A stretch of DNA of 64,000 bases from Centroscyllium fabricii (taxonomy: Eukaryota): assembly GCA_051313645.2 (NCBI GenBank), contig JBNRSN020000001.1, positions 379,750,001-379,814,000 of the forward strand. Direction: 5' to 3'. This document shows positions 1 through 35,853 of this stretch, in pieces. Below the pieces are notes generated by a model. The model searched no databases. It saw only the letters and a list, made by a program, of their open reading frames with translations, and was not told the DNA's origin. Every line of letters begins with the position of its first letter. The first letter of the stretch is position 1. Position numbers and translations under genes: made by a program.

Positions 1-330
1 CTACCCTCTCCCCATATCCCCCGACACCCCCAACTCTAAGAACTATATCTCACACACATACTCACGGGCAATTTTTTTTTTCGTATCTCCAATTCACCTA
101 GTGAGTTTACAAGTCAGATTGAAACCTAACTCCTGATTTTATTGTCATTTTTATATCAATATCCACCCAACACTGTTTTTGATTGTCATGAAAGTGACAA
201 TATAACTGTGGTCTAACCTTACAATCTGTATTATTCAACCCTGACTAGTTGGATGTGTTATGTTATTTAACTGTAACTACAGAGTTGGAGTTGTAGCAAC
301 AAACTATTGTCCAAAAGGGTTACAGTAGTG

Positions 331-572
331 TGTAGGAAACTGATCTCCTAACAAATAAATCAGCCAACTCGGAGGAGTAACTGCAAAACTAGTCTTTTCT
401 GTTCAAGCTCCAAAAACATTCTAACAACAAAAGCCCGCAGAATGCGCAATGACATCACCAACTGATCTGTTTTCCCTCTCTCTTAAAGGGCAGGGGAAAC
501 CTGTAAGTTAAAGGGGATTTTACATTTAATTATTATGTACAGTCATTTATTCCCCGATGTGGAAATGCCCCT
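331..572 (-). repeat. 3' LTR of element A
   Basis: Starts TGTAGG and repeats 9004-9247; the CA end of this copy is mutated and it abuts the polypurine tract. Confidence 0.9.
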
Positions 573-653
573 TTTCCCCCCCCAGAAACCTCTTCAACTG
601 AAAAAGTCAATCGTTCAGGTGGCTTGATCAAACGGCCATAGCGGCTGTCGTAC

Positions 654-3209
654 TCAGAGAGTGGACGAGGAGGAGTATCTGGGAGGCTGGCAGGTTGAAG
701 AACAGACGAGTCCGGTGGCCGGTCTGACGTCGGACTCGCAGGATGGTCTGCGGGTGACGATGACGAAGAAAAAGAAGAAGACGATTGGCAGGCGGGCGGA
801 CTGGTTGACGACGGGTGTTGCAGGAGGTCTGCTGTGACGTGGAGGAAAATCTGGCTGGACTGGAGAACTGAGGTCTAGGTGAGCCGGCTTCAGATGATCC
901 ACCGAGACGTAGTCCGGCTTTCCGCCGATGTCCAGAATGAAAGATTTGTCTCCCGCCTCCAAGCCATGGAAGGGCCCCGTGTAAGGGGCCTGAAGAGGAT
1001 CTTTGTGCGCATCCCAGCGCACGAAAATGAATTCCGCCTGGTGTAGATCTTTTGGAACATGGGAGAGATGAGGGCCATGCTGGGACGTGGGTACCAGCCA
1101 AAAGCACCTGGTTGCCTCTTGGTGCAGTGATCGTTGTATTGAAGCGGACCACGGCTCTGTGACGAGAGGAAGGAATTCGCCCGGGACTCTGAGTGGTTGC
1201 CCATTAACCATTTCAGCCGAAGAAGAGTTGAGGTCTTCCTTGGTTGCAGTAGGAAGTCCCAGAAGAACCCAGGGCAACTTGACTATCCAGCAGGTATCTA
1301 ACAGGCAGGCCGGCAAGGAGGCCTTCAACAATCTGTGAAAATGCTCACAAAGGCCGTTCGCCTGTGGGTGGTAGGCTGTGGTTCTTTGGAGTTTTGCCCC
1401 TAGCCCATGAGCGATGGCATTCCACAGCTGAGAAGTAAACTGAGGACCTCTGTCTGACAAAATGTCGGCAGGAACTCTGAATCTGCCCACCCACAATGAT
1501 AAAATCGCCCTGGCCACGTCAGCCGCGGTGATGGAGATTAGAGGGACTACCTCCGGCCAGCTTGTGGTGCGGTTGACTACAGTGAGGAGATGCGTGTAGC
1601 CTCGTGATGGCGGGAGTGGGCCAACCAGATCCACATGAATGTGGTCAAACCTTCTCTCAGGCACGGGGAAGAATTCCAGTGGCGCTTTGGTGTGTTGATG
1701 GATTTTCGCCCTCTGGCAAACCACGCATGTGTTCATCCAGTCTCTCACGTCCTTGTGTAGACCGGGCCACATGAACTTCGCTGCTATTAGCTTCTGGGAT
1801 GTCCGCATACCTGGATGAGAAAGTCCATGGATGATATCAAAAACTCGCCTACGACAGGAGGATGGAAATACTGGCTGAGGATCTTTAACTGACATGTCAC
1901 AAAGAAGAGTTGTACCAGCCGCCTGGAAATGAATGTCGGCCAGGCTGAGGCCAGCAACCGACGATCCTAGGGACTGGATTTAGGGCATCAGATGCCCGGT
2001 CCTCTGCCATACTGGCATAGTCCACGCCCAGGTGAACGGTGTGAAGAGAGGGTCGTGAGAGGCAATCTGCCACCATGTTTTCCTTACCGGCCACATGGCG
2101 GATGTCGGTGGTAATTCGGAGATGAAATTGAGCTGGCGCGCAGGCCAAGGTTCCGCAGTTTTTGCCATAGCGAAGGTTAGCGGTTTATGATCATCGAATG
2201 CTATGGAAGGTCGAGCATCTAGCAAAAATCTGAAGTGTCTGACTGCCAAAAACAAGGCGAGTAGCTCTCTGTCAAATGTGCTATATGCCCGCTCGTTCTT
2301 GACCAACTGGCGACTGAAGAACGCTAGTGGTTGCCAAGCCCCGTCGATCCACTGCTGCTGCACTGCGCCAATGGTGTAGTCGGAGGCGTCAGTTGTGAGG
2401 GCGACCGTGGTGCCTGAAATGGGGTGTGCAAAAAGCGTGGCATTGGCCAACGCCCGTTTGGTTTTGTCGAATGCTGAGGACATCTCTTCCATCTATGATA
2501 GCGGCTGTTTGCTCATCTTGCCCCTGGTGGCTTCGTAGAGAGGGCGCATGAGGAGGGCAGCCTTTGGTACAAAACGATGATAAAAATTAACCATACCCAG
2601 GAACTCGTGAAGAGCTTTGACTGAAGTGGGCTGAAGAAAATCCGATACTGCCTGTACTTTGGCCGGGAGAGAAATTACCCCATCCGCCGATATCCGATGG
2701 CCGAGAAAGTCGATCTGTGCAAGTCCGAATTGGCATTTTGCACGGTTGACGATGAGACTGTGCTGACTCAGGCGCTGGAAGTGAGATCACAAGTGTGAGA
2801 TGTGCTCCGCTTTGTCAGTGCCGGCCACGAGGATGTTGTCGAGGTAGACGAAAAGAAAAGGGAGGTCCCAAAGCACCGAATCCATAAGGCAATGGAAAGC
2901 CTGCGCAGCATTCTTCAGCTCGAAAGGCATTCTTAGGAATTCAAAAAGGCCAAAAGGGGTGATGACCACAGTCTTCTGGATGTCAGCCTGGTGAATGGGA
3001 ACTTGATAATAACCCCGGATCGTATCCACTTTTGAGAAGATGAATTTTCCCGCCAGGTGTGCAGAGAAGTCCTGGATATGCGGTATGTGTTAGCGATCAG
3101 ACGTGGTAGCATCATTGAGCTTCCTGTAATCGCCGCAGGGTTGCCAGCCACCGCCCGGCTTAGGGACAATGTGAACAGGAGAAGACCAGGGACTATTCGA
3201 GCGGCGAAC
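654..3209 (-). pseudogene. Element A pol, 3' part (RT, RNase H, integrase), frameshifted
   Basis: ORFs 2787-3029 (RT: [15 protein letters not shown]), 1980-2492 (RNase H) and 654-1895 (integrase with HHCC, DDE-region and GPF motifs) lie in different frames. Confidence 0.92.
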
Positions 3210-3213
3210 GATG

Positions 3214-3458
3214 TGTGTCGGCACGCCCACTAGGACACCGAATCCGCCTCGGGAACACTGCGGGGCATAGCCCCGCCCATTGGGTGACGCGATGACGTCA
3301 CCACGACTTCCGGCGTGATGAGGTCACCAACGGCGGGCCGTTTAAATAAGCCTGCTTCGAGTGGTTCACTCTCTTCTTGTGTTACTGTGATGCATTAAAC
3401 AAGTGTTTTTTCTGTCTCTCTGGCTCACACGTGGGTCCTAGGCCCTGCAGGCGCTACA
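3214..3458 (+). promoter_or_regulatory. 5' LTR of element B with promoter and poly(A) motifs
   Basis: GC box CCCCGCCC 3271-3278, CRE palindrome TGACGTCA 3293-3300, ETS-like ACTTCCGG 3306-3313, TATA-like TTTAAATAA 3341-3349, ATTAAA 3394-3399. Function is inferred from motifs only. Confidence 0.75.
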
Positions 3459-3549
3459 GTGGTGACCTCGACTTGGAACGACTTCCAAAGAAAAAAAGCT
3501 GCCGCAGGATCAAGGATCACCAGCCTAAGGACGCTTAAAAAGGAAATAC

Positions 3550-6500
3550 ATGGCTTCAAGAACAAGGAACCAAGCTCCACGAATCCAAGGACTTGGCCAG
3601 AACTTTGGGCACAGACTTACCCTGCCAGAGTTCTGGGAGCAACGACCAGCGGCCTGGTTCATGTGCATTGAAACCAGCTGCCGCACAACCGGCGTCCAGG
3701 GGGACGACCGCTACGACTTGGTCTTTTCGGCCCTACCGCAATCGACGATCGACCGGATGTGGTCCAAACTACAGCGTGTGCGCACGGCAGGCAGGTATGA
3801 GTTCCTCAAGGCCGCGCTCATAATTTTTTTTACCCCCTCTCAATTTGAGCGCGACTGCCAGCTCCTTAACCTCCCCGAACTCGGGGACGCAGACCCATCA
3901 GACCTTTGGGGTCAGATGCAAGCGCTCACCGCCGATCCCACCTCCGTGTTCCGCACCGTTTTCCTCCTCAAACTACCCCGCTCCATCAGACCGGCCCTGG
4001 CGGGCCTCGGCCAGCGGAGCGGGGACGAGCTCGCTGAGGAAGCCGACAGGCTCATGGCGGCCGAGCGCACCCGCTCAACCACGTGCGAACCTAACGCCGC
4101 ATCTATCGAGTGCAACCACTCGCCCCCCAGGTCCAACCTCATGCCTGAACCTAGGGCCCCGCGCCCACCCAGGCAACCGCGTCCATCAAGCACCGGCTGG
4201 TGCTACTACCACATGCGGTTCGATAATAAAGCGCACCGCTGCGTCCAGCCATGCGCATTTAAGCCACGGCCCACTCCAGCCCCCACTATGTCTGTAGGAC
4301 ACACAGGAGCACTGCTCTTTGTCACAGACACCGGCACAGGCCTCAGGTTCCTCTGCGACACAGGCGCGCAGCACAGCATCGTGCCAGCCTCCCCTGCAGA
4401 AGCCAAACAAGGCACCCGGGGCCCACCTCTCGCAGCGGCCAACGGCTCCAATATAAAAACGTACGGCACCCGCAAGCTCACTATTAGACTTGCAGGCCAC
4501 ACGTATCACTGGGACTTCGTCACAGCCCAGGTCACTTCACCCCTCCTCGGGGCAGATTTCCTCTGCGCCCACGGCCTGCTGGTCGACATGACCCGGCGCC
4601 GCCTGGTCGACATCAATAACATGTCGACCATCCCATGCTCCACAGGGCCCGCACTCCTGGCCCACGCGGCCGCCCAATGCCGCTCTCGGAACTCTGACGC
4701 TTATGGCACACTCCTTGCAGAGTTCCCAACCCTCACCAACCCCACGTTCACCGCCCGCCGGGCCAAACACGGGGTAGAGCATTTTATAACCACCACCGGC
4801 CCTCCCGTCCATGCCCATGCCCGCAGGCTCGACCCGGCCAAACAGGAGATCGCGCGCACCGAGTTCCGCACTATGGAGCAACTCGGTATTATCCGCCGCT
4901 CCAACAGCCCCTGGGCCTCTCCTATCCACATAGCCCCCAAGCCGGGCGGGGGTTGGCGCCCCTGCGGCGACTACCGCCGCCTTAACAACGCCACTACCCC
5001 GGATAGGTACCCCGTACCCCACATCCATGATTTCTCCGTCAGACTAGCAGGCTGCACGATCTTCTCCAAGATCGACCTGGTGCGTGGCTACCACCAGGTT
5101 CCGGTGCACCCGGCGGACATCCCCAAAACGGCCGTCATCACTCCCTTTGGACTCTTCGAGTTTCTTAGGATGCCCTTCGGCCTTAAAAACGCGGCCCAGG
5201 CCTTCCAGCGCCTCATGGACTCGGTCCTACGGGACTTGACGTTCATTTTTGTCTACCTGGACGGCATCCTCGTGGCCAGCACCTCCCCCCAGGAACACCT
5301 CCTGCACCTCAGGACCCTGTTCCAGCGCCTGGTCGAACACGACCTCATATTAAGCCCCACAAAATGCAAATTTGGCCTCCAAATCATTGACTTCCTCGGC
5401 CACCGCATTTCCCAAACCGGGGCCATACCCCTGCCCTCCAAGGTGCAGGCGGTCCAGGAATTCCCCCGCCCGCACTCCATTAAAGGGCTGCAGGAATTCC
5501 TTGGGATGGTTAATTTCTACAACCGCTTTATCCCGTGAGCAGCCGCTCTCATGGACCCCTATACCAGGCCACACGCGGGCAGTCTGGCAAAACCGCGGTA
5601 GAGTGGACGGCCGACGCCGACACCGCCTTCACCGCAACCAAAACCGCCCTGGCTAACGCCACCCTCCTAGCCCATCCTAGGCCCAACGCCAGAGTAGCCC
5701 TCACCACTGACGCCTCCGACCACGCGGTCGGGGCCATCTTTGAACAGTGGACCGGCAACTCGTGGCAGCCCCTGGCCTTTTTCAGCCGGCAACTCCGGCC
5801 CCCAGAGGTCAAGTACAGCGCCTTCGATAGGGAGCTCCTCGCTCTCTACCTCGCAGTGCACCATTTTCGCTTCCTCTTGGAGGGCCGCCACTTTACAGCC
5901 TTCGTCGACCACAAGGCACTCACCTTCGCTATGGCTAAGGTCGCCGAACCCTGGTCGGCCAGGCAGCAGCGCCAGCTCGCGGCCGTGTCGGAGTTCACGA
6001 CCAACATTCAACATATCTCCGGCTGCGACAACGTGGTCGCTGACGGCCTCTCACGCCCCACTATTAACGCCGAACAAATGGCGGTCGATTACGCCCAGCT
6101 GGCAGCAGACCAGCTGGCCGACCCTGACCTGCTCAACCCCGCAGCAAACCTCCCTGGCCTCCACTTGGCCAAAATCGCACATGGCCCCGCTGCCACCGTC
6201 GTCTGCTGCGACGTGTCCCTAATGCAGCCCAGACCCGTCGTCCCCCACGCATAGAGGCGACACATTTTCAAGACCCTCCATGACCTGTCCCACTCCGGCA
6301 CCCGCGCGTCGATTAAACTAATTTCGGCCCGGTTCGTATGGCGCGGCCTGCGCAAAGACGTCCGCGCCTGGGCCAACTCCTGCATTGCCTGCCAGCGCTC
6401 CAAAGTGCACAAGCACATCAGGGCACCGCTGGAAACATTTACAGTGCCGGCCAGACGCTTCAACCACGTCCATATTGATCTCGTCGGGCCACTACCGCCA

Positions 6501-7379
6501 TCCCGGGGCCACACACACGTAATGACCATGGTCGACCGCAACACTCGCTGGCCAGAAGCAGTCCCCCTCGCTGCCACCGGCACCACGGACTTGGCCAGGG
6601 CGTTCATCGCCACCTGGGTCGCCCGTTTCGGCGTGCCCACCGACATCACGTCGGACAGAGGACCCCAGTTTACGTCAGCACTATGGGCGGCCATCGCCCG
6701 CGACCTCGGGGTAACCTTGCATCGAACCACCGCATACCACCCACAATCTAACGGGCTCTGCGAACGGTTCCAACGCTCTATGAAAACATCCCTGCGGGCC
6801 AGCCTCAAAGACGCGTCATGGACCGACCGTCTCCCATGGGTACTCCTCGGGCTGCGCTCGGCAGTCAAAGAGGACCTAAACACCTCGGCAGCAGAACTCG
6901 TCTACGGCCAAGCTCTAACAGTGCCAGGCGAGTTCCTAGCCGAGTCAAACGCTCCCTGGTCAGCCGACCAGTACCTAAAGGACTTTGCCAACCCGGCACG
7001 AGCGTTCCAACCACTACCAGTGGCCCGGCACGGAGAGCCGGCAGCACGCGTACCGGACGGCATTAAAAACTCAAAATTTGTGTTCGTCCGGCGCGACGGA
7101 CACCGATCACCACTACAGCCACCATATGATGGCCCTTATAGAGTGCTTCGGGCGGGAGCTAAAGCTTTCCAGCTTCAAATGGGCAACAGAACAGAAACTG
7201 TTTCAATAGACCGGCTCAAACCAGCACACGTTATAGCGGGCGAGACGACAGTCCCCGCACAACCACCGCAACGCGGACGCCCTCCCGCAACAACACCCGC
7301 CCACACTCCACCGCAGAACCAGGAACAACGCACAACACGTGCCGGCCGCATCATCCGGCCACCCCAATGGCTCACATAG
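3550..7379 (+). pseudogene. Element B gag-pol polyprotein (gag, PR, RT, RNase H, IN) with few lesions
   Basis: CHCC gag knuckle CYYH-x9-C-x3-C, protease DTG, RT (YLDG in place of YLDD), RNase H TTDASD, integrase with GPY. Interrupted by TGA 5536-5538, a 1-bp frameshift near 5555 and TAG 6252-6254. Confidence 0.95.
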
Positions 7380-7420
7380 ACTCTTTTTAATTCTCCCGGA
7401 CAGATTCTGGGGGATAGCTG

Positions 7421-7665
7421 TGTGGCGGCACGCCCACTAGGACACCGAATCCGCCTCGGGAACACTGCGGGGCATAGTCCCGCCCATCGGGTGACGCGAT
7501 GACGTCACCACGACTTCCGGCGTGATGAGGTCACCAACGGCGGGCCGTTTAAATAAGCCTGCTTCGAGTGGTTCACTCTCTTCTTGTGTTACTGTGATGC
7601 ATTAAACAAGTGTTTTTTCTGTCTCTCTGGCTCACGCGTGGTTCCTAGGCCCTGCAGGCGCTACA
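7421..7665 (+). repeat. 3' LTR of element B
   Basis: Near-identical to 3214-3458. Confidence 0.97.
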
Positions 7666-8956
7666 GATGCCCATTTTTCCATTGTCACGAACTCTGCCTT
7701 GGCCACGGCCATTTTGGCTGGATCCAGGCGCCGGGCACGAGCATACACCGGGGGACCTGTGGTGGCAATGTGGTGTTCAACGCCATGTTTAGTCGACGTG
7801 GCCGAAAAAGTTGGCTGCGTGAGTCCAGGAAAATCTGCCAGAAGACGTGAGTAGTCATCCAGTGCGGTCGAGGCGCAGGACAGGATGAGGGCCGGTCTGT
7901 TGCTGCATTGGAACAACAAAGAATTAAATGTGGCCGCATTGATGAGGCGTCGGTCGCGGACGATAACCAGAAGGCCGTGGGGCACACAGGAAATCTGCAC
8001 CAAGCAGGGGCTGTGAGACTGAGGCCGTGATGAAGTCCCAGGTAAACCGCTGTCCACTGAAGCAGATTTCCACTTGACGTTTTCCATAAGTGCGGATGGC
8101 GATGCCATTAGCCACCATGAGGGGAAGTCCGCTCCGACCCGCCAGTTTATCATGGGTGGAAGCTGGTATAAATACTGCACTGTGCACCTGTGTCACAGAG
8201 GAATCGCCAGCCAGAAAGCGAATCGGTGATGTAGAGGAGTTTCCCTGCTGAACCGACGGCCATCGTGGCGGCAGGGGGTCGCTCAGATGAAATCCGCCGG
8301 TGGTGAGGACTCGGTGAGTCGGGCAGGGTATCCTTTTTTTTTGTTGCGAACGTGTAGGGCGGGCGGCAGCGGTGAGCCTTCGCGCCAAAACAGGCGTGAT
8401 AATAACAGAGGCCTACAGCCTGATGAGGTGGGTTGCGCTCCGTGGGGGAGGGGAACCTCGTGGCTGGGCAGCTGAGCTGGGCCACGGAGAAGATTTTGGC
8501 TGCCACGGCTGCGAGCTTGATGCAGTCCGTGATTGGGGAACCGGCGAGGGCAGCTTGAACTTGTTGAGGAAGCTGGGCCAAGAATAAAGCACGAAAAAGA
8601 AAATATTGTGGCTCGGACCCCAGAAGAGTGAGCATTTGGCTCATTAACTGGGTCGGGGTGGAGTCTCCAAGGCCTGGTAGCAAGAGAAGCCTGCATGCTC
8701 TCTCCTCCTTGGATAAACTGAAAACCTGCAGGAGTCTGTCCTTAACTGCCTCGTACTTTCCGGCTTCTGGAGGGTTCCCCAGAAGGTCGATGACTTATGT
8801 AGCGGTGGATCTCTCGAGGGCCGACACAACATGGAGGTATTTTTCTTCATCGTCCTCAACTTTCCACAGGGAGAACTGGGCTTCTACGTGAGCAAACCAT
8901 ATGGCTGCTTGTTGCTCCCAAAAAGGGAGTTTTAAGGCTGCAGCACCGGTAGCCAT
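7666..8956 (-). pseudogene. Element A gag, protease and RT start, decayed
   Basis: ATG at 8956 reads MATGAAALKLPFWEQQAAIWF. CYYHACFGAKAHRC, LCDTGA and HGVEHHIATTGPPV occur in shifting frames. Confidence 0.9.
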
Positions 8957-9003
8957 TATGCTGCGTGGGTCAGTAAAACCATTTACTGACTAGGGGTCAC
9001 CAA

Positions 9004-9247
9004 TTTAGGAGACTGTGATCTCCTAACAAATAAATCAGCCAACTCGGAGGAGTAACTGCAAAACTGGTCTTTTCTGTTCAAACTCCAAAAATATTCTAAC
9101 AACAAAAGCCCACAGAATGCGTGATGGCATCAGCAAATGGTCTGTTTTCCCTCTCTCTTAAAGGGGAGGGGAAACCTGTAAGTTAAAGGGGGTTTTACAT
9201 GCAATTATTATGTGCAGTCATTTATTCCCCGATGTGGAAATGCCACA
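9004..9247 (-). repeat. 5' LTR of element A
   Basis: Adjacent to the PBS; ends ...TGCCACA followed by TSD AGTG. Confidence 0.92.
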
Positions 9248-10756: not shown

Positions 10757-11025
10757 CACGATCATCCCTCTCCCCTCCCTGCTCTCCGATCGGCAGCTGC
10801 GGCCATCCTTCCCCCCTCCCCGCTCAGCGATCAGCAGCCGATCTCCTTCCCCCCTCCCCACTCTCCGATCAGCAGCCGATCTCCTTCCCCCCTCCCCGCT
10901 CTCCGATCGGCAGCCGCGGCCATCCTCCCCCCCCCGCTCTCCGATCAGCAGCCGATCTCCTTCCCCCCTCCCTGCTCTCCGATCAGCAGCTGATTTCCTT
11001 CCCCCCTCTCCCGCTCTACGATCAA
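10757..11025. repeat. ~38-40-bp GATC-rich minisatellite, about 7 degenerate units
   Basis: Recurring unit CCGATCAGCAGCCGATCTCCTTCCCCCCTCCCCGCTCT. Confidence 0.85.
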
Positions 11026-11426
11026 CTGGCACATCGGGACGCCTCCCCCCACTCTCTCAGCAAGTGGCCAATCTCGGGCTGAAGAGGGAGGGTGGCCCTT
11101 TTAGCAGCGCTGCAGCGGCCACTCAAACCCGATGCAGCGCTTGCAAAAGCTGGCGCTGATAGCGCGGGGGGCGGTGGAAAGGTGCTAAGCCCAATATCAG
11201 GTGCAGTCCGCCAGGCGGGCGTTGCACACGCATTGTCCCGACGATTGGTGATCGCCAGGCAGCGCAGCACTAACGTTTAGCGCCGGCGCTAACCACTAGG
11301 TCAATTTAGCGCCCGCCGCTAATTTGGGCGCTACGTCAGCGCTGGCGCATTAGCACCGATTTTCGGCGCTAATGGGCTGGTGCTAAGGCGCCAATTCCGC
11401 GGCCAAGGTCTGTAATCAAATATATA

Positions 11427-16466: not shown

Positions 16467-17115
16467 CTCTTCAACCTTGAGAGTGTGTTAACTCTGTTAA
16501 GTATAGTTTTCGATCTTTTCTCTATTAAAGTACTAAGCATTTGAACCTTACTCTATGCAAAACAGAATCTAGATTTATTTCCTTGTTAGTAGTCTTCTGT
16601 GTCTGCCCAACTTTTTTCACTAACAATAGTCAAAATCATTAACCACCTAAGGGCAGGGGAATGCTCGAGATCACAGTTTTGATTTCATCTCTTCTGATCT
16701 TTCTTTTTCTCTTTTTATACAGAAATTAGCATTCTTTAGTCTGGTTCTGATTTTCTCCAACAGGCCACCATCAAACAGTAGACTGTGGACTCCAGAGCTG
16801 ATGATCATTGTGCGGTGGCACCCTGTGGTAAACCTGTATTTCACCACTGTATTGTACCACTGTAATGGTACCATAATGCACCACTGTACATATGTAGATA
16901 TCTGTATACAGGAGCTTGCCTCAGCTGACCCACCTCTGACTCCTCCCCTGAGTCCAGGTATATAGGTGATTGCCTACCATCCCCCGGTCAGTACAGACCC
17001 GAGCTCAGCTGAGACACGCTCCATTCTATAGTTAATAAAAGCCTTTAGTTGAGGTAACTATTCATCTTTGTGTCTTAATTGATGATACGTCAATTTTATT
17101 AACTATATTTTGAAC

Positions 17116-18762
17116 ATGGAAAGCAGCGCAGTAAAAGCAGACCGCCTCGATATCAACCCTCAGGCACCAGATATGGCGAACAATTTCGAACATTGGTTTG
17201 GCTGTGTCGAGGCCTACATGAAGGCCATGAAGGCGACCATGCATGCCGTTGAAGAGTCCATCCCCTTCCAGGTGGAAAGCGACGCATCGGACTTTGCCCT
17301 TGCCACCACCCTCAACCAGGTGGGCACGCCCGTAGCGTTCTTCTCCCGGACCCTACAGGGACCCGAAATTCGCCACTCCGCAGTAGAAAAGGAGGCCCAG
17401 GCTATTGTGGAGGCAATGCGCTACTGGCGCCACTACCTGGGCAGTAAGAGATTTACCCTATTCACCGACCAACAGTCGGTGGCATTTATGTTTAACACTA
17501 AACAGCGGGGTAAAATTAAGAATGATAAGATCCTTCGGTGGCGGATCGAGCTCTCGACTTACGAGTACGACATTCTTTACTGGCCAGGTAAGCTCAACGA
17601 GCCCCCGGACGCATTGTCCAGGGGAACGTGCGCCAGCGCCCAGCTTGACCGGCTGCAGGACCTCCACGATCGCCTCTGCCAACGGGTGTCACCAGACTCG
17701 CCCACTTTGTGAAGTCCCGTAGCCTCCCCTACTCCATCTCGGAGATCAAGGCTATGACCAAAGAGTGCCCTGTCTGCACTGAATGCAAACCCCAATTTTA
17801 CAGGCCAGACAGGGCGCACCTCATCAAGGCCACCCACCCCTTCGAGCGCCTGAGTGTGGACTTCAAACGTCCCCTCCCCTCCACTGACCGCAACTCGTCA
17901 TTTCCACACGGTCATCGACGAGTTCTCCCGCTTCCCCTTTGCCTTCCCCTGCCCAGATACGACGAGCGCAATGGTGATCAAACACTTCACCACGCTGTTC
18001 ACCATTTTCGGTCTCACCAGCTACATCCACAGTGACCGGGGGTCATCGTTCATGAGCGATGAACTGCATCAGTTTCTGCTCCAGAAGGGGATTGCCTCGA
18101 GCAGAACGACCAGTTACAACCCCCGCGGGAACGGCCAGGTAGAAAGGGAGGACGGGACGATCTGGAGGGTGGTCATCCTGGCCCTGAAGTCCAGAGGCCT
18201 TCCAGTATCCCGTTGGCAGCAGGTCATCCCCGACGCGCTCCATCCCATCCGCTCTCTGCTGTGTACCGCTACCAATGCCACACCTCACGAACAATTGTTT
18301 TCCTTCCCCAGGAAATCGACTTCAGGGACAGCGCTCCCGCTGTGGCTGACCACCCTGGGGCCAGTCTTGCTTAGGAAGCATGTCTGCAGCTACAAGACGG
18401 ACCCTCTGGTGGAACGGGTGCACCTGCTCCACGCCAACCCGCAATATGCGTACGTGACATACCCGGACGGGCGCGAAGACACAGTCTCAATCAGGGACCT
18501 GGCGCCCGCTGGGACCACGATCACTGAACCCCCAGTTGAGCCTCAGCTCCACCAGCCACCACCCACCGAACACTGGCCCCCATACACACACACACTGGGG
18601 CCCTCGACATCAACAGCCGACGAACAGAGGTCGGACATCGCACCGCTGCCACCATTGGCGGATGACACGACCCCGACCCCGCGACCAGAACCACCATCAC
18701 CGGCACCCCGTCAGTCCCTCAGGAAGACACGACCACCCGAGAGTCTGATCACAGAATGTTAA
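17116..18762 (+). pseudogene. Element C: gag N-terminus fused to RNase H, followed by frameshifted integrase
   Basis: MESSAVKADRLDINPQ...HWFGC joins VESDASD (RNase H) and KIKNDKILRWRIELS. Integrase C-x2-C, IHSDRGSSF and YNPRGNGQVER follow. No protease or RT. Confidence 0.88.
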
Positions 18763-18883
18763 ATTGCCAACTGTGTTAACGCATGTTCACCCCGCCGGAC
18801 TCATTTTTAAAGAAGGGGTGAATATGGTAAACCTGTATTTCACCACCGTATTGTACCACTGTAATGGTACCATAATGCACCAC

Positions 18884-19128
18884 TGTGGTGGCACGCCCAC
18901 TGGGACATCGAATCCACCACGGGGACTCCGCGGAGCAGAGCCCCGCTCATCCGGGTGACGCGACGACGTCATCACGTCGGCCGACGCGCTGACGTCACCA
19001 ACCGCGGGACCATTTAAATATGCCTGTCTCGAGTGGTTCACTCTCTTTCTTGTTTTGTACTAGTTGATTAAAGCTGTGTTTTCTCTAGCTCTGGCTCACG
19101 TGTGGTTCCTAGGCCTGCCGGCGCTACA
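18884..19128 (+). mobile_element. Solo LTR related to element B, inserted in the 3' LTR of element C
   Basis: 245 bp, TGTGG...CTACA, same length and termini as the element B LTR. 4-bp TSD CCAC at 18880-18883 and 19129-19132. Confidence 0.93.
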
Positions 19129-22100
19129 CCACTGTACATATGTAAATATCGGTATACAGGAGCCTGCCTCAGCTCACCCACCTCTGACTCCTCCCCGGAG
19201 TCCAGGTATATAGGTGATTGCCTACCATCCCCCGGTCAGTACAGACCCGAGCTCAGCTGAGACACGCTCCATTCTATAGTTAATAAAAGCCTTTAGTTGA
19301 GGTAACTATTCGTCTTTGCGTCTTAATTGATGATACGTCACACCCCTAAGCCACTCAGAATTCTCAATTTATACTGCATCCTTGATTCAGATCTGGATTC
19401 TGCCTCTTTCTCTGCTGTAGTTAGTGTCCTTACGCACTATTTACGATTTCAATTGGACCCTGTTTTGAATGTAGTCGTCTCAATTGAATCTAATAATGCC
19501 AAACTGTTGAAATTACCTTTGCCTTAAACAAGGACACACGATGGCGGATATCAGATGTCAAATCCGAAACGTGTGCCAGGACTTGCTGCTGGGAATAGGT
19601 GAGCAACAGCTCAGATCCAACTGCTAACAGCCGTCAGAGTTAAACTCATTTATATCAGAGCTGATTTTAATCTGTCAAGTAGTAGGGTTTAAATCAAAGC
19701 TGACATCAAAGTAAAGTAATTTGCAAAGTTGAGACATTTGTGTTTTGACTTGGAACAGTTGCAGATTTGGAATGAATCAGAATTTAAAGCTGTGATATAA
19801 ACGCAGTTGGAACTGGCTATTATTTTTCACTGGAGCAGAGCCAGACTGAACTGAAGTTATTTGCAATCCACACAGTAGCTTTCTAATTCCCTATAATAGC
19901 TCCACATAGAAAACATTCATTTGTCTTAATCCACAAAGTCCAGTTTGTTAACCAGCTGTGACAGGCCTTTGGTGCTGCTGCCCTTGTAACTTTTTTTCTT
20001 GCGTGTGTTTAGTGTCTTTTGAGACATATCCCTTTTAGTTTTGGCCTTGTGATTTCTGCTTTTCTCAAATATTTTGCTTTTATCTTCTCTTTCTGTTGTT
20101 TTCTTTCCCCAACAGCACGCACGATTCCCTGCCTGAAAGAATAGACAGGCTACCTGCTATCAGGCTGCTCTTTAATTGACTGCTGTGCGAGAGTGGTGTG
20201 GGGTAAATTGGCTGCTGATTTTTTCCCCTCCCTGTGGGGAACCGGTTATCCTGCACTTGGCACCTTGCCCTAACAGCCCAGCTGAGATCAGAAACATACC
20301 ATGTGGGGAATTGTGGGCACAAACCAACATCCTGTCATTTCATGGTACAATGTTCACACCAACATGTGCTGAACCAATGGACCTGTATATCTTTCTCTTG
20401 TAAGTATTTTCCTTTCCACTCCCTCTTATATTTGGGGCCCAAGAGATTTCATATTTCCTCCAGATGAGAGGGCAGAGCTATCCAAGCTGTCAGCTTATCC
20501 ACAATCTGCTACCCCAAGTGGCACTTCAAGATCAGCCAGTAGAGAGATGCCCATTTATTCAATGTCATGTGGCCTGTGCCTAGTGGTTCCCAGTCAGTGG
20601 TTCATGTTTTAAATGAACCACTTCCAGGTGATGCATCGTAATTAGACACTAAAAGCTACCAAATTCATTAGCAATCAAATATAATCCAAAACGTGCCTGC
20701 GACATAGTCACACTAATGGTGGTACCAGATGTAATCTCTGCAAGCAGTCAAAACCAAGCTTCTTCCCCGCACTCTGCTCTGCTGCACAACTTCAGCTTCT
20801 GAGATCCAAACTGTGGAAGAAAGCTACGCAGTAACCTTATTGTCTTATCTCATAGTACTACCCCCAGCCAGAGTGATAGAAGCGCTTGAGAAATGTTTAG
20901 ATACCGTTAACCCTATAGTGCTGTCATACCAGCAGTGCCAACTTCTGCAGCAGAGTTATGAAGTAATTGAAGTGCTGCAGGTGCTTCTGGAGGCATCGAG
21001 ATCCATTTGAATGGTTGGTTTCACCATCATCTCAGAGGCACCAGCACCTCAACAGCAAATATAAACATTGCCTCTGGGTACAGGGCAGTTCCCATTCCTT
21101 TAAGCTGTGGACAAGGCTCAGTCTATCTGACAGGAGGTTTCTCCATTGCCGATGCGCACAGATCTCTCCCTTCCCCAGCCCCAACGGAATATCCAGTGCC
21201 CAGAACAAAGTGATGAAACATGACTTTCAAATAACCACATAAAAAACAATTGTTTATCTATTGCTTGGAAACCATGGAACCTTTTTTTTAAACATTCATG
21301 GGACGTGGGTGTTGCTGGCAAGGCCAGCATTTATTGCCCATCCCTAATTGCCATTGAGAAGGTGGTGGTGAGCCGCCTTCTTGAACTGCTGTTGTCCATG
21401 TGGTGAAGGTACTCCAGCAGTGCTGTTAGGGAGGGAGTTCCAGGATTGTGACCCAGTGACAATGAAGGAACAGCGATATATTTCCAGGTCAGGATGATGA
21501 GCAACTTGGAGGGGAACTTGGAGGTGGTGGTGTTCCTATGCGCCTGCTGCCCTTGTCCTTCTAGGTGGTAGAGGTCGTGGGTTTGGGAGGAGCTGCCAAA
21601 GAAGCCTTGGTGAAATGCTGCAGTGCATCTTGCAGATGGTACACATAGCAGCCACGGTACGCTGATGGTGGAGGGAGTGAATGTTTAAGATGGTGGATGG
21701 GGTGCCAATCAAGCGGGCTGCTTTGTCTTGCATGGTGTCGAGCTTCTTGAGTGTTGTTGGAGCTGCACTCATCCAGGCAAGTGGAAAGTATTCTATCACA
21801 CGCCTCATCAATGGGAGTCAGGGAGCAAATGCTCCACTGGCTGGAGTCATACCTAGCACAAAAGAAGATGGTTGTGGTGGTTGAAGGTCAATCATCACAG
21901 TCCCAGGACATCGCTGCAGGAGTTCCTCAGGGCAGTGTCCTAGGCCCAATCATCTTCAGCTGCTTTGTCCTGTATGGTGTCGAGCTTCTTGAGTGTTGTT
22001 GCAGCTGCACTCATCCAGGCAAGTGGAGAGTATTCCATCACACTCCTTACTTGTGCCTTTTAGATAGTGGAATGGCTTTGTGGAGTCAGGAGGTGAGACA

Positions 22101-34099: not shown

Positions 34100-35853
34100 G
34101 GAGGGAATTTTAACCTAAAAAAAAATGGATGGGTTTCGAGTGTGGGGTAAATTGTTAAAAATTGGATTACCAACCAGAACCCACCTCCATCCTGCCCACT
34201 TCCGGTTTTAACGGAGGCAGGTTGGAAAGCAGGATGGGAGTAGGCAGCCAACCCACTCCCCTGAGGTGGGACATCAATTTAAATATTATAATGAGACTGG
34301 AAGCCTCTTTTTTAATCTCCATTTGGTTTTTAACTACATATGGACAGGCTTTACACCCTTCGTAAAAACCGAGAGTTACAGCAAGGCGGGGACGGCTGCA
34401 TCCAAGAGGGTAAGTGCCTTGACACCTACCTCCTGGATCCAGGGTCCCTGCCTAGCCCAACGCCCCACCCACCCCCATGGTCAGAGATCCCCGCCCTCCA
34501 ACGAAGCCTCCGATCACCCGCCAGCCCTCCGATCACCACCCCCCCAGGCCTTCCTCCACCCCACCAATGATGCTGATGCCAGTCACAATCTTCTCTTCTT
34601 CCCCTCCTCCCCACCCCCCACCACCACTGATCATCCGGTGGCTGGCCCTGATCCTCTGGTGGCTGGCCTTGATCCTCCGGTGGCTGGCCCTGATCCTCCG
34701 GTGGCTGGCCCTGATCCTCCGGTGGCTGGCCCTGATCATCCGGTGGCTGGCCCTGATCATCCGGTGGCTGGCCCTGATCCTCCAGTAGCTGGCCACAATC
34801 CTCCGGTGGCTGGCCCTGATCATCCAGAGGCTGGCCCTGATCCTCCAGTAGCTGGCCACGATCCTCCAGTGGCTGGCCCTGATCATCCAGTGGCTGGCCC
34901 TGATCCTCCGGTGGCTGGCCCTGATCCTCCAGTGGCTGGCCCTGATGCTCCGGTGGCTGGCCACGATCCTCTGGTAGCTGGCCCTGATCCTCCGGTAGCC
35001 GGCCACGATCCTCCGGTGGCTGGCCCTGATCATCCGGTGGCTGGCCCTGATCCTCCGGTGGCTGGCCCTGATCCTCCGGTGGCTGGCCCTGATCATCCAG
35101 AGGCTGGCCCTGATCATCCAGAGGCTGGCCCTGATCATCCAGAGGCTGGCCCTGATCCTCCGGTGGCTGGCCCTGATCCTCGGGTGGCTGGCCACGATCC
35201 TCTGGTGGCTGGCCCTGATCCTCTGGTGGCTGGCCCTGATCCTCCAGTGGCTGGCCCTGATCCTCCGGTGGCTGGCCCTGATCCTCCAGTGGCTGGCCCT
35301 GATCCTCCGGTGGCTGGCCCTGATCCTCCGGTGGCTGGCCCTGATCCTCTGGTGGCTGGCCACGATCCTCTGGTGGCTGGCCCTGATCCTCCGGTGGCTG
35401 GCCCTGATCCTCCGGTGGCTGGCCACGATCGTCTGGTGGCTGGCCTGATCCTCCGGTGGCTGGCCCTGATCCTCCGGTGGCTGGCCACGATCTTCCCTTC
35501 ACCACCTCCCACCCGCCCCCGATCATCTGGCCTTGTCTTCTTTCACTTTGCCCCCCCCCACCCCGATCCTCTGCCCAACTCCCCCAGCACCCCCACCCGA
35601 TCCTTTAGCGACCCGGCCCCCACACGTACCTTCCCTCCCTCCTCTGTATGGCCTAGTGCTGCAGGCCTACCTGCCCGCAGCCGGCCAACCACTCAATCTG
35701 TTGGATGCAGGCGTGAAACTGAGGCCTTGCATGCAAATCAGGCCCTGCTGTTAAAGTTGGCAGGACCTGCGGGAAACACGGCCTCCTGGGTTTCCCGACC
35801 GCCTCGGAGCTCGCCCGTACCCCAAACCTGCCTTACTCCTTAAAATCCAGCCC
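34100..35853. mobile_element. Non-autonomous TIR element carrying an expanded minisatellite
   Basis: Imperfect TIRs GGAGGGAATTTTAA and (rc) GGGCTGGATTTTAA; GC-rich interior. Confidence 0.55.
34628..35492. repeat. 21-bp minisatellite (GATCCTCCGGTGGCTGGCCCT)n, about 41 copies
   Basis: Directly visible tandem array; it explains the PDPPVAG and EDQGQPP periodic ORFs. Confidence 0.97.

Follow-up and report, generated by a model that had tools for sequence, protein, structure and literature searches.

A candidate self-priming configuration in a chromodomain-less Ty3/Gypsy clade of Centroscyllium fabricii and other animals

In Tf1 and Tf2 of Schizosaccharomyces pombe, Tj1, Tosmo1-3 and Tf1/sushi chromoviruses, the primer-binding site (PBS) has its complement in the element's own LTR, according to the passages cited here (PMC7175516, PMC4600332, PMC10085805). 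Tf1 requires flanking duplexes, one of which adjoins the self-primer, as stated in the passage cited from PMC10085805. Outside this group, self-priming has been predicted from LTR–PBS complementarity for the TAR/Houba lineage of Ty1/copia elements in plants (PMC6317226, in the section cited). As a body, the relevant passages of PMC3601003, PMC6934838, PMC7175516, PMC6317226, PMC6238403, PMC4600332, PMC5006619, PMC10085805, PMC2864245, PMC3670739, PMC8556966, PMC5341516, PMC2582038 and PMC2774666 link self-priming to Tf1/sushi and, as a prediction, to TAR copia.

Here we describe element C, a Ty3/Gypsy retrotransposon whose PBS is complementary to its own LTR and which belongs to a chromodomain-less animal clade, separate from the sushi-type chromoviruses of the same genome. 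The element lies in a window of 64,000 nucleotides of the C. fabricii assembly GCA_051313645.2 (contig JBNRSN020000001.1, positions 379,750,001 to 379,814,000, forward strand); all coordinates below are those of this window. A sequence-only reading of the window had presented the pairing as the strongest candidate for an undescribed mechanism, which overstates the case, since self-priming is already an established property of Tf1/sushi. The novelty lies in the clade and, should it be confirmed, in its geometry. No account of self-priming in this clade was found in our literature search, the scope of which lay outside subscription papers and Repbase; Repbase reportedly holds notes on self-primed Gypsy families in animals, and a prior description there is possible, though less likely than not.

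Architecture of element C and its LTR–PBS duplex

Element C spans positions 16824 to 19340 on the forward strand, flanked by 5-bp CACCC target-site duplications (16819-16823 and 19341-19345). Its LTRs (TG...CA), target duplication and polypurine tract (18809-18822) are features of Ty3/Gypsy elements (Metaviridae). The 269-bp 5′ LTR (16824-17092) agrees with the 3′ LTR at 261 of 270 compared positions, and its right-hand end was fixed without use of the pairing—from the 3′ LTR match and the target duplication. The 3′ LTR (18823-19340) holds a second copy of the pairing arm described below and is split by a solo LTR akin to the family of element B (18884-19128, with a 4-bp duplication CCAC), which has no part in the mechanism. 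The copy is broken: the first ~38 gag codons continue in frame into RNase H (together 17116-17712) across an internal deletion, protease and RT being absent, and the integrase core frame (17854-18762) gave no chromodomain match in a domain scan.

Elsewhere in the window, elements A (minus strand) and B are nested at 341-9244 and 3203-7666, respectively, and their RTs cluster together; element B has a TGG PBS, as CsRn1 elements do. Two tandem arrays were also recorded, one of 21-nt units at 34480-35600, for which ~39 overlapping copies were listed and in which several frames are open, and one of 38-nt units at 10758-11049. A search for tRNA genes in the window found none.

The PBS of element C (17094-17107) begins one base past the 5′ LTR end, after a one-base spacer (A17093), and TGG is absent there. 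As the sequence-only reading had claimed, it is the exact 14-nt reverse complement of an upstream arm at 17027-17040 that contains AATAAA (17034-17039). The two arms, 100% complementary and 53 nt apart, form the duplex on which our analysis centres, the upstream arm being the candidate self-primer and 17040/17041 the predicted cut. Both inner stems named in that reading were found, namely TAGTT (17046-17050) with AACTA (17056-17060) and AATTGATG (17077-17084) with CGTCAATT (17088-17095), the second overlapping the first two PBS bases. The TATA that it had placed about 65 nt upstream of the arm corresponds to a TATA-like box, with a putative promoter role, at 16959-16965, ~68 nt before the arm. 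Moreover, a GCCT...AGGT stem (17041-17055) has its first base directly after the predicted cut, and a U5-end hairpin (17079-17093) adjoins the PBS. In folding predictions, the 5′ arm pairs with the PBS at a probability of 0.94-1.0 over 12 of 14 pairs; for AATAAA they give an unpaired probability of 0-0.25 in the 5′ copy, and of 0.72-1.0 in the 3′ copy, where it is predicted to be free.

At the level of this single locus, the pairing could reflect chance in AT-rich DNA or a quirk of a deleted copy—A and T make up 93% of the arms, and the local fold is only modestly unusual (z -2.1, with 5 of 200 shuffles equally good). The case against chance therefore depends on the relatives.

Conservation and covariation of the duplex

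A DNA search of the C. fabricii genome gave 4,234 candidates, 40 of which were scored; 30 loci were fetched, one being the window itself. The same 14-mer was present in 28 of these 30 close copies and differed by one base in the other two, while a TGG PBS occurred in none (0/30), in line with the sequence-only reading, and a tRNA-primed element was rejected on this ground. Because the close copies were picked by likeness to a query containing the PBS, they establish the family state only. Two LTRs ~4.2-5.8 kb apart were seen in 6 of 12 loci examined as longer stretches of family members. Genome-wide, a pattern anchored solely on the hexamer, on the end of the LTR and on the start of gag gave 152,215 matches, against 146 for the reversed control, and a perfect run of 11-15 bp, including letters beyond the pattern, was found in 27 of the first 30 pattern loci. 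The clade of element C has at least 152,215 recognisable 5′ junctions in this genome, or about one per 47 kb. Sushi-type self-priming chromoviruses are likewise abundant there.

A search with a distant gag protein (P0001) returned 30 loci of four other families, whose gag N-termini are 30-38% identical to that of the element C family. All four keep the duplex in other letters: one has 15 bp around a 38-nt loop, one reaches 18 bp and mirrors an ATTAAA variant in the PBS, one has 13 bp and one has 11 bp or more. A look for compensatory changes between the arms, as the sequence-only reading had suggested, thus found the duplex kept across strongly diverged families, and neither a normal TGG PBS in relatives nor a loss of complementarity across them appeared.

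The gag alignment was too variable for scanning collections, so the RT alignment was used instead. RT-RNase H relatives of 46-79% identity came from a sea anemone, a coral, a sea slug, a fluke, a spider, a butterfly, nematodes, rays and a catshark, and gag relatives additionally from a sea cucumber and a bug; the viral contigs searched gave no match. Several bacterial MAGs (L183-L190, L194-L196 and L202, labelled Ekhidna, Rubritalea, Hyphomicrobiales and others) hold animal-type Gypsy elements, which probably represent host DNA contamination. Of 44 other-host gag starts, taken from metagenome and MAG contigs, 34 have a perfect 10-18-bp duplex and ten lack any of 10 bp or more. An LTR-end anchor was absent in 7 of all 103 gag starts, and we read the starts that lack the duplex or the anchor as probably decayed or truncated copies. 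Of the remaining 96, anchored independently of pairing, 90 pair at no fewer than 9 of 11 positions; clustering at 80% identity sorts them into 43 families (19 from the C. fabricii genome and 24 representatives from other hosts)—families that are kin, their covariation counts not being independent events. The pattern-selected loci (L073-L102) are biased towards AATAAA or ATTAAA; the protein-selected ones (L043-L072, L103-L202) carry no such bias.

Since the register was picked to maximise pairing over 11 positions, with run length merely as a tie-break, three comparisons provide a fair test: positions 12-13, own versus swapped LTRs, and permuted positions 8-12. Positions 12 and 13, which lie beyond the register score, pair in 40 and 39 of the 43 families, and position 14 in 25. 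The best 11-nt pairing reaches 11/11 with the family's own LTR in 34 of 43 families, compared with 48 of 1,806 swapped LTR/PBS pairs. Positions 8-12 are paired in 206 of 215 cells; with swapped partners the mean is 125.5 (sd 5.9) and the highest value 153. In total, the families display 28 different PBS 11-mers, each matching its own LTR. A Watson-Crick duplex of ~13 bp, with compensatory changes, is kept in the 43 families, its length in the clade varying from 11 to 18 bp. Set against the pattern counts with their reversed control, the perfect runs and these swap controls, chance pairing is so improbable as to be negligible. Self-priming in some form by the element C clade is, in our judgement, very probable; as for the sequence-only proposal of self-priming after a cut near 17040/17041, the relatives support the reading, with the cut itself as a prediction.

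Register, poly(A) signal and position of the primer

The register of the duplex is fixed as closely as its pairing. The length of the arm-final A run equals that of the PBS-initial T run in 38 of 43 families (3/3 in 20, 4/4 in 18), and the spacer between the LTR end and the PBS is an A in 38 of 43. LTR pairs were available for 18 other-host elements: in 7 of them the distance from LTR end to PBS is exactly 1 nt, and in 10 it lies between -1 and 2 nt. In LTR elements, the right LTR end is determined by the start point of minus-strand synthesis; a fixed duplex register is therefore what a primer site should show. In addition, 27 of 34 families have a stem of at least 4 bp whose first base directly follows the arm (null from shuffles 33%), in G.U, A-U and G-C versions, and a U5-end hairpin of at least 5 bp occurs in 13 of 34 (null 16%), mainly in own-genome families.

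Within the main duplex, G.U is not favoured, with 3 G.U and 3 A.C among 990 pairs; genome-wide, pair 10 is G-C in 61,652 copies, G.U in 556 and A.C in 524. As the arms are reverse complements, later mutation should yield G.U and A.C equally, and the counts agree; their near equality at pair 10 argues that no wobble lineage has spread at that pair. A test for primer-templated repair among pair 10 copies found 4 compensated A-U pairs against 4.7 expected, and the predicted excess was not seen. Pair 10, which is G-C in 39 of 43 families, may be under constraint.

The overlap of the arm with the poly(A) signal raises a different possibility. AATAAA or ATTAAA lies within the arm in 17 of 19 own-genome families, and a search for families combining three A's with some other hexamer returned 9 matches only, not one of them recognisable as the element C clade. 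These observations, like the predicted pairing of AATAAA in the 5′ copy and its freedom in the 3′ copy, would suit a duplex whose sole function is to conceal the poly(A) signal near the promoter; priming would then fall to some unrecognised tRNA fragment or other host RNA that displaces the duplex. However, masking has no need for a fixed +2 register, matched A and T runs or strict Watson-Crick pairs, and a single host primer would be unable to match 28 different PBS sequences. The canonical hexamer is also absent from the arm in 10 of the 24 other-host family representatives (two being mutated copies whose PBS implies ATTAAA), and in L103 and L105 it sits in the loop, outside the duplex. We consider masking alone quite improbable. 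The masking put forward in the sequence-only reading fares better as a plausible second role, on the strength of the predicted pairing, and is insufficient on its own for the pattern observed.

As a control for primer position, 16 sushi-type loci were fetched from the same genome, nine of them without a usable LTR end; of the sushi-type frames scanned, 7/9 contained a chromodomain and 8/9 an SH3 domain. An exact 11-bp LTR–PBS duplex was found in 5 of the 16 loci, with a damaged version of the same site in two more, and a TATA-like box lies 40 nt before the arm end in 6 of 16; with this spacing the arm falls at the start of the RNA, the arrangement of Tf1. In the element C clade, the sushi position lacks a TATA-like box in all 17 own-genome families; the box lies 79-85 nt before the arm end in 14 families and 64 nt in one, and an initiator-like motif at TATA+25..31 accompanies it in 12 of these 15. 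In element C itself, an initiator-like TCAGT at 16988-16992, identified by eye, predicts a start at A16990 (TATA+31). A leader of ~37-40 nt thus probably precedes the arm, placing the primer inside R, and a small hairpin often ends 3-7 nt before the arm in own-genome families. The sequence-only reading had suggested such an internal primer, a suggestion strengthened by the sushi-type comparison, on the basis of promoter motifs rather than RNA ends. A TATA box can seldom be recognised in other-host families, and in L127 and L139 TATA-like words precede the arm end by 34-39 nt; the internal position may therefore not be general. A pyrimidine tract with AG shortly upstream of the arm, observed in L127, L132, L140, L144, L149, L150, L154, L155 and L176, may represent a splice acceptor inside the LTR.

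These promoter motifs also bear on whether the clade might share the geometry of Tf1, its packaged RNA starting at or next to the arm (either from an initiator near 17023 that lacks a TATA, or after a second cut) and its primer being a 13-17-nt 5′ terminal piece, with the upstream TATA driving another transcript. Four of 17 own-genome families, element C among them, do have an initiator-like motif 14-17 nt before the arm end, which in element C directly precedes the arm (17021-17026); the outer edge of the duplex is fairly sharp, at 13-15 bp; and Tf2 has alternative start sites, according to the part of PMC5341516 cited here. Against such a start stand the conserved TATA and initiator at -31/+1 spacing ~37-40 nt 5′ of the arm (the 12 of 15 families noted above), the empty sushi position in all 17 families and the duplex length of 11-18 bp, compared with 11 in all five exact sushi-type arms. 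We hold a Tf1-like geometry to be unlikely, while giving it real weight.

The reading that we favour, and judge somewhat more probable than its negation, is self-priming with an arm internal to R, a cis cut at 17040/17041 and poly(A) masking as a second role. Transcription would start near A16990, leaving the arm ~37 nt inside the RNA, and the arm would fold onto the PBS and hide the 5′ AAUAAA, so that no early polyadenylation takes place. By analogy with Tf1, RNase H would cut where the duplex meets the GCCU stem, just behind ...AAUAAAA, and leave a capped fragment of ~51 nt with its last 13-14 nt annealed to the PBS. Minus-strand strong-stop DNA would measure only ~53 nt, and its strand jump would rely on the ~16-18 nt that, at the 3′ end, separate the poly(A) site from AAUAAA. 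Plus-strand synthesis would copy the primer up to the end of its paired part, with the small hairpin immediately upstream of the arm as a possible stopping point. The long unpaired 5′ extension counts against this sequence of events, as it poses the puzzle of where plus-strand copying stops.

For the poly(A) site, a search for captured tails at 12 distinct loci yielded one clear polyadenylated end of the clade: in L212 (1500-1540; G000:C845:26389704), the 3′ LTR of a clade member ends 16 nt past AATAAA in a tract of 18 A's and is joined to what we take to be a CR1-type LINE reverse transcriptase; a polyadenylated transcript was probably captured here. This one case is consistent with a working poly(A) signal. 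Nine other loci were not recognisable as LTRs of the element C clade, and L216 and L218 were rejected as poly(A) tails, both being inversions. The latter two (G000:C800:25351183-25354243 and C822:529751686-529754745) belong to one family and carry the same short inversion at two separate loci; it covers the LTR end, the PBS and the 5′ leader, with TGT/ACA bounds, and a polypurine tract precedes one LTR and not the other. Either a recurrent inversion or copying of an inverted form could be involved.

An element RNA other than the cis 5′ arm cut by RNase H could also serve as primer, whether the 3′ copy of R or short transcripts terminated in the 5′ LTR, with a nuclease trimming to the duplex edge and annealing in trans or across a circularised RNA. 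Covariation does not distinguish the 5′ and 3′ copies of the arm, and the 3′ LTR arm is predicted to be unpaired (0.72-1.0) and lies ~16 nt from the poly(A) site in the single case above. On the other hand, a distance of 53 nt separates the 5′ arm from the PBS, with which it is strongly predicted to pair, and the conserved stem exactly at the junction suits an endonucleolytic cut. We regard a primer from the 3′ copy or from short transcripts as improbable. The internal-arm reading makes predictions at the single-nucleotide level—a start at 16990, a cut at 17040/17041 and a poly(A) site near +16-18—that are decidable by RNA end-mapping.

Lineage and comparison with known systems

Relatives of element C in the clade have the domain order gag-protease-RT-RNase H-integrase, LTRs of ~170-270 bp and single ORFs of 1,184-1,253 aa, and their RT is nearest to Ty3 RT among solved structures (E 1e-45). 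Neither a chromodomain nor a Tf2-type SH3 domain was found after integrase in five long other-host ORFs (L183 possibly being cut by a contig end) or in five own-family integrase frames. RT-RNase H identity is 43-64% within the clade, 26-32% to sequences outside it and 29-32% to same-genome sushi-type elements. In RT-RNase H trees, which were quick ones built without named reference elements, the clade forms a long branch with 100% support apart from the sushi-type rows, so the phylogenetic check against Tf1/sushi suggested by the sequence-only reading separates the two. Seven of the 26 tree rows labelled 'selfpair' (L115, L128, L136, L145, L153, L166 and L186) have an unconfirmed duplex, their 5′ ends being missing or decayed, and row L270_m_2 is a nested CsRn1-like frame. 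A shared origin with chromoviruses as sister group received an AU p value of 0.024 for the clade with four sushi-type rows and of 0.36 with three unidentified neighbouring rows included. We rejected membership in Tf1/sushi, as the chromodomain and SH3 domain are absent and the RT-RNase H is not nested in chromoviruses.

The cited passage of PMC2582038 gives the CsRn1 clade a tRNA-Trp PBS, a 4-bp target duplication and a CHCC gag motif; with no TGG PBS, a 5-bp duplication and a CCHC-type knuckle, the clade of element C was not assigned to it. Saci-2 was rejected as a clade name, since its gag motif differs, the name 'Barthez' did not occur in the papers listed by the literature search, and 'Cigr' did not occur in PMC2774666. 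A Cigr-1 clade has been reported from molluscs and annelids, in passages that are silent on priming (PMC6238403, PMC8556966). Cigr-1 is a candidate name for the clade, and one of the MolGy clades is equally so. Cigr-1 of Ciona intestinalis has a short LTR of ~245 bp, a single ORF of ~1,210 codons and a SURL/Mag-like gag.

Self-priming is regarded as a hallmark of the Tf1/sushi chromoviruses. A second, very successful animal clade would mean that tRNA independence is common in Ty3/Gypsy, and would reopen the question of whether self-priming is ancestral or has arisen repeatedly. If the reading is correct, a large share of the LTR elements of this genome would lie beyond the control of 3′ tRNA fragments and go undetected by annotation that relies on a PBS. 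An internal primer would imply that a primer need not be the RNA 5′ end and would raise a testable question on the plus-strand stop, and the clade, with over 150,000 copies in this genome, would supply the first LTR element with an internal R segment as primer. As a switch, the poly(A) signal of the 5′ LTR would be hidden by the PBS and then cut out as the 3′ end of a capped leader primer. The fullest version of this proposal—separately evolved self-priming in cnidarians, flatworms, nematodes, molluscs, arthropods, echinoderms and cartilaginous fishes, with a dual-role RNA switch and an internal R primer—we advance tentatively, as a possibility short of an even chance.

The 5′ R region of HIV-1 contains a poly(A)-signal occlusion hairpin, with AAUAAA buried in a stem near the cap site. 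Compared with HIV-1, the partner strand in the element C clade lies outside the LTR, so that pairing is possible in the 5′ copy only, and the partner is the PBS itself. Like the clade, the TAR/Houba lineage would self-prime outside Tf1/sushi, as predicted in the passage cited, but it belongs to another superfamily and its hosts to another kingdom. With Tf1/sushi, as described in the cited passages, the clade shares the Ty3/Gypsy domain order, a non-tRNA PBS, LTR–PBS complementarity and a second duplex by the predicted cut; a by-eye look in element C for the third Tf1-type duplex, from U5 to the region 3′ of the PBS (the pretzel), found nothing evident. Unlike Tf1/sushi, the clade has neither a chromodomain nor a Tf2-type SH3 domain. 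Its arm measures ~13 bp, compared with 11 in Tf1/sushi, and overlaps the poly(A) signal; the distance from arm to PBS is mostly 35-70 nt, against 123-221; and the arm follows the TATA-like box by ~68 nt, whereas in Tf1/sushi it does so by ~30 nt.
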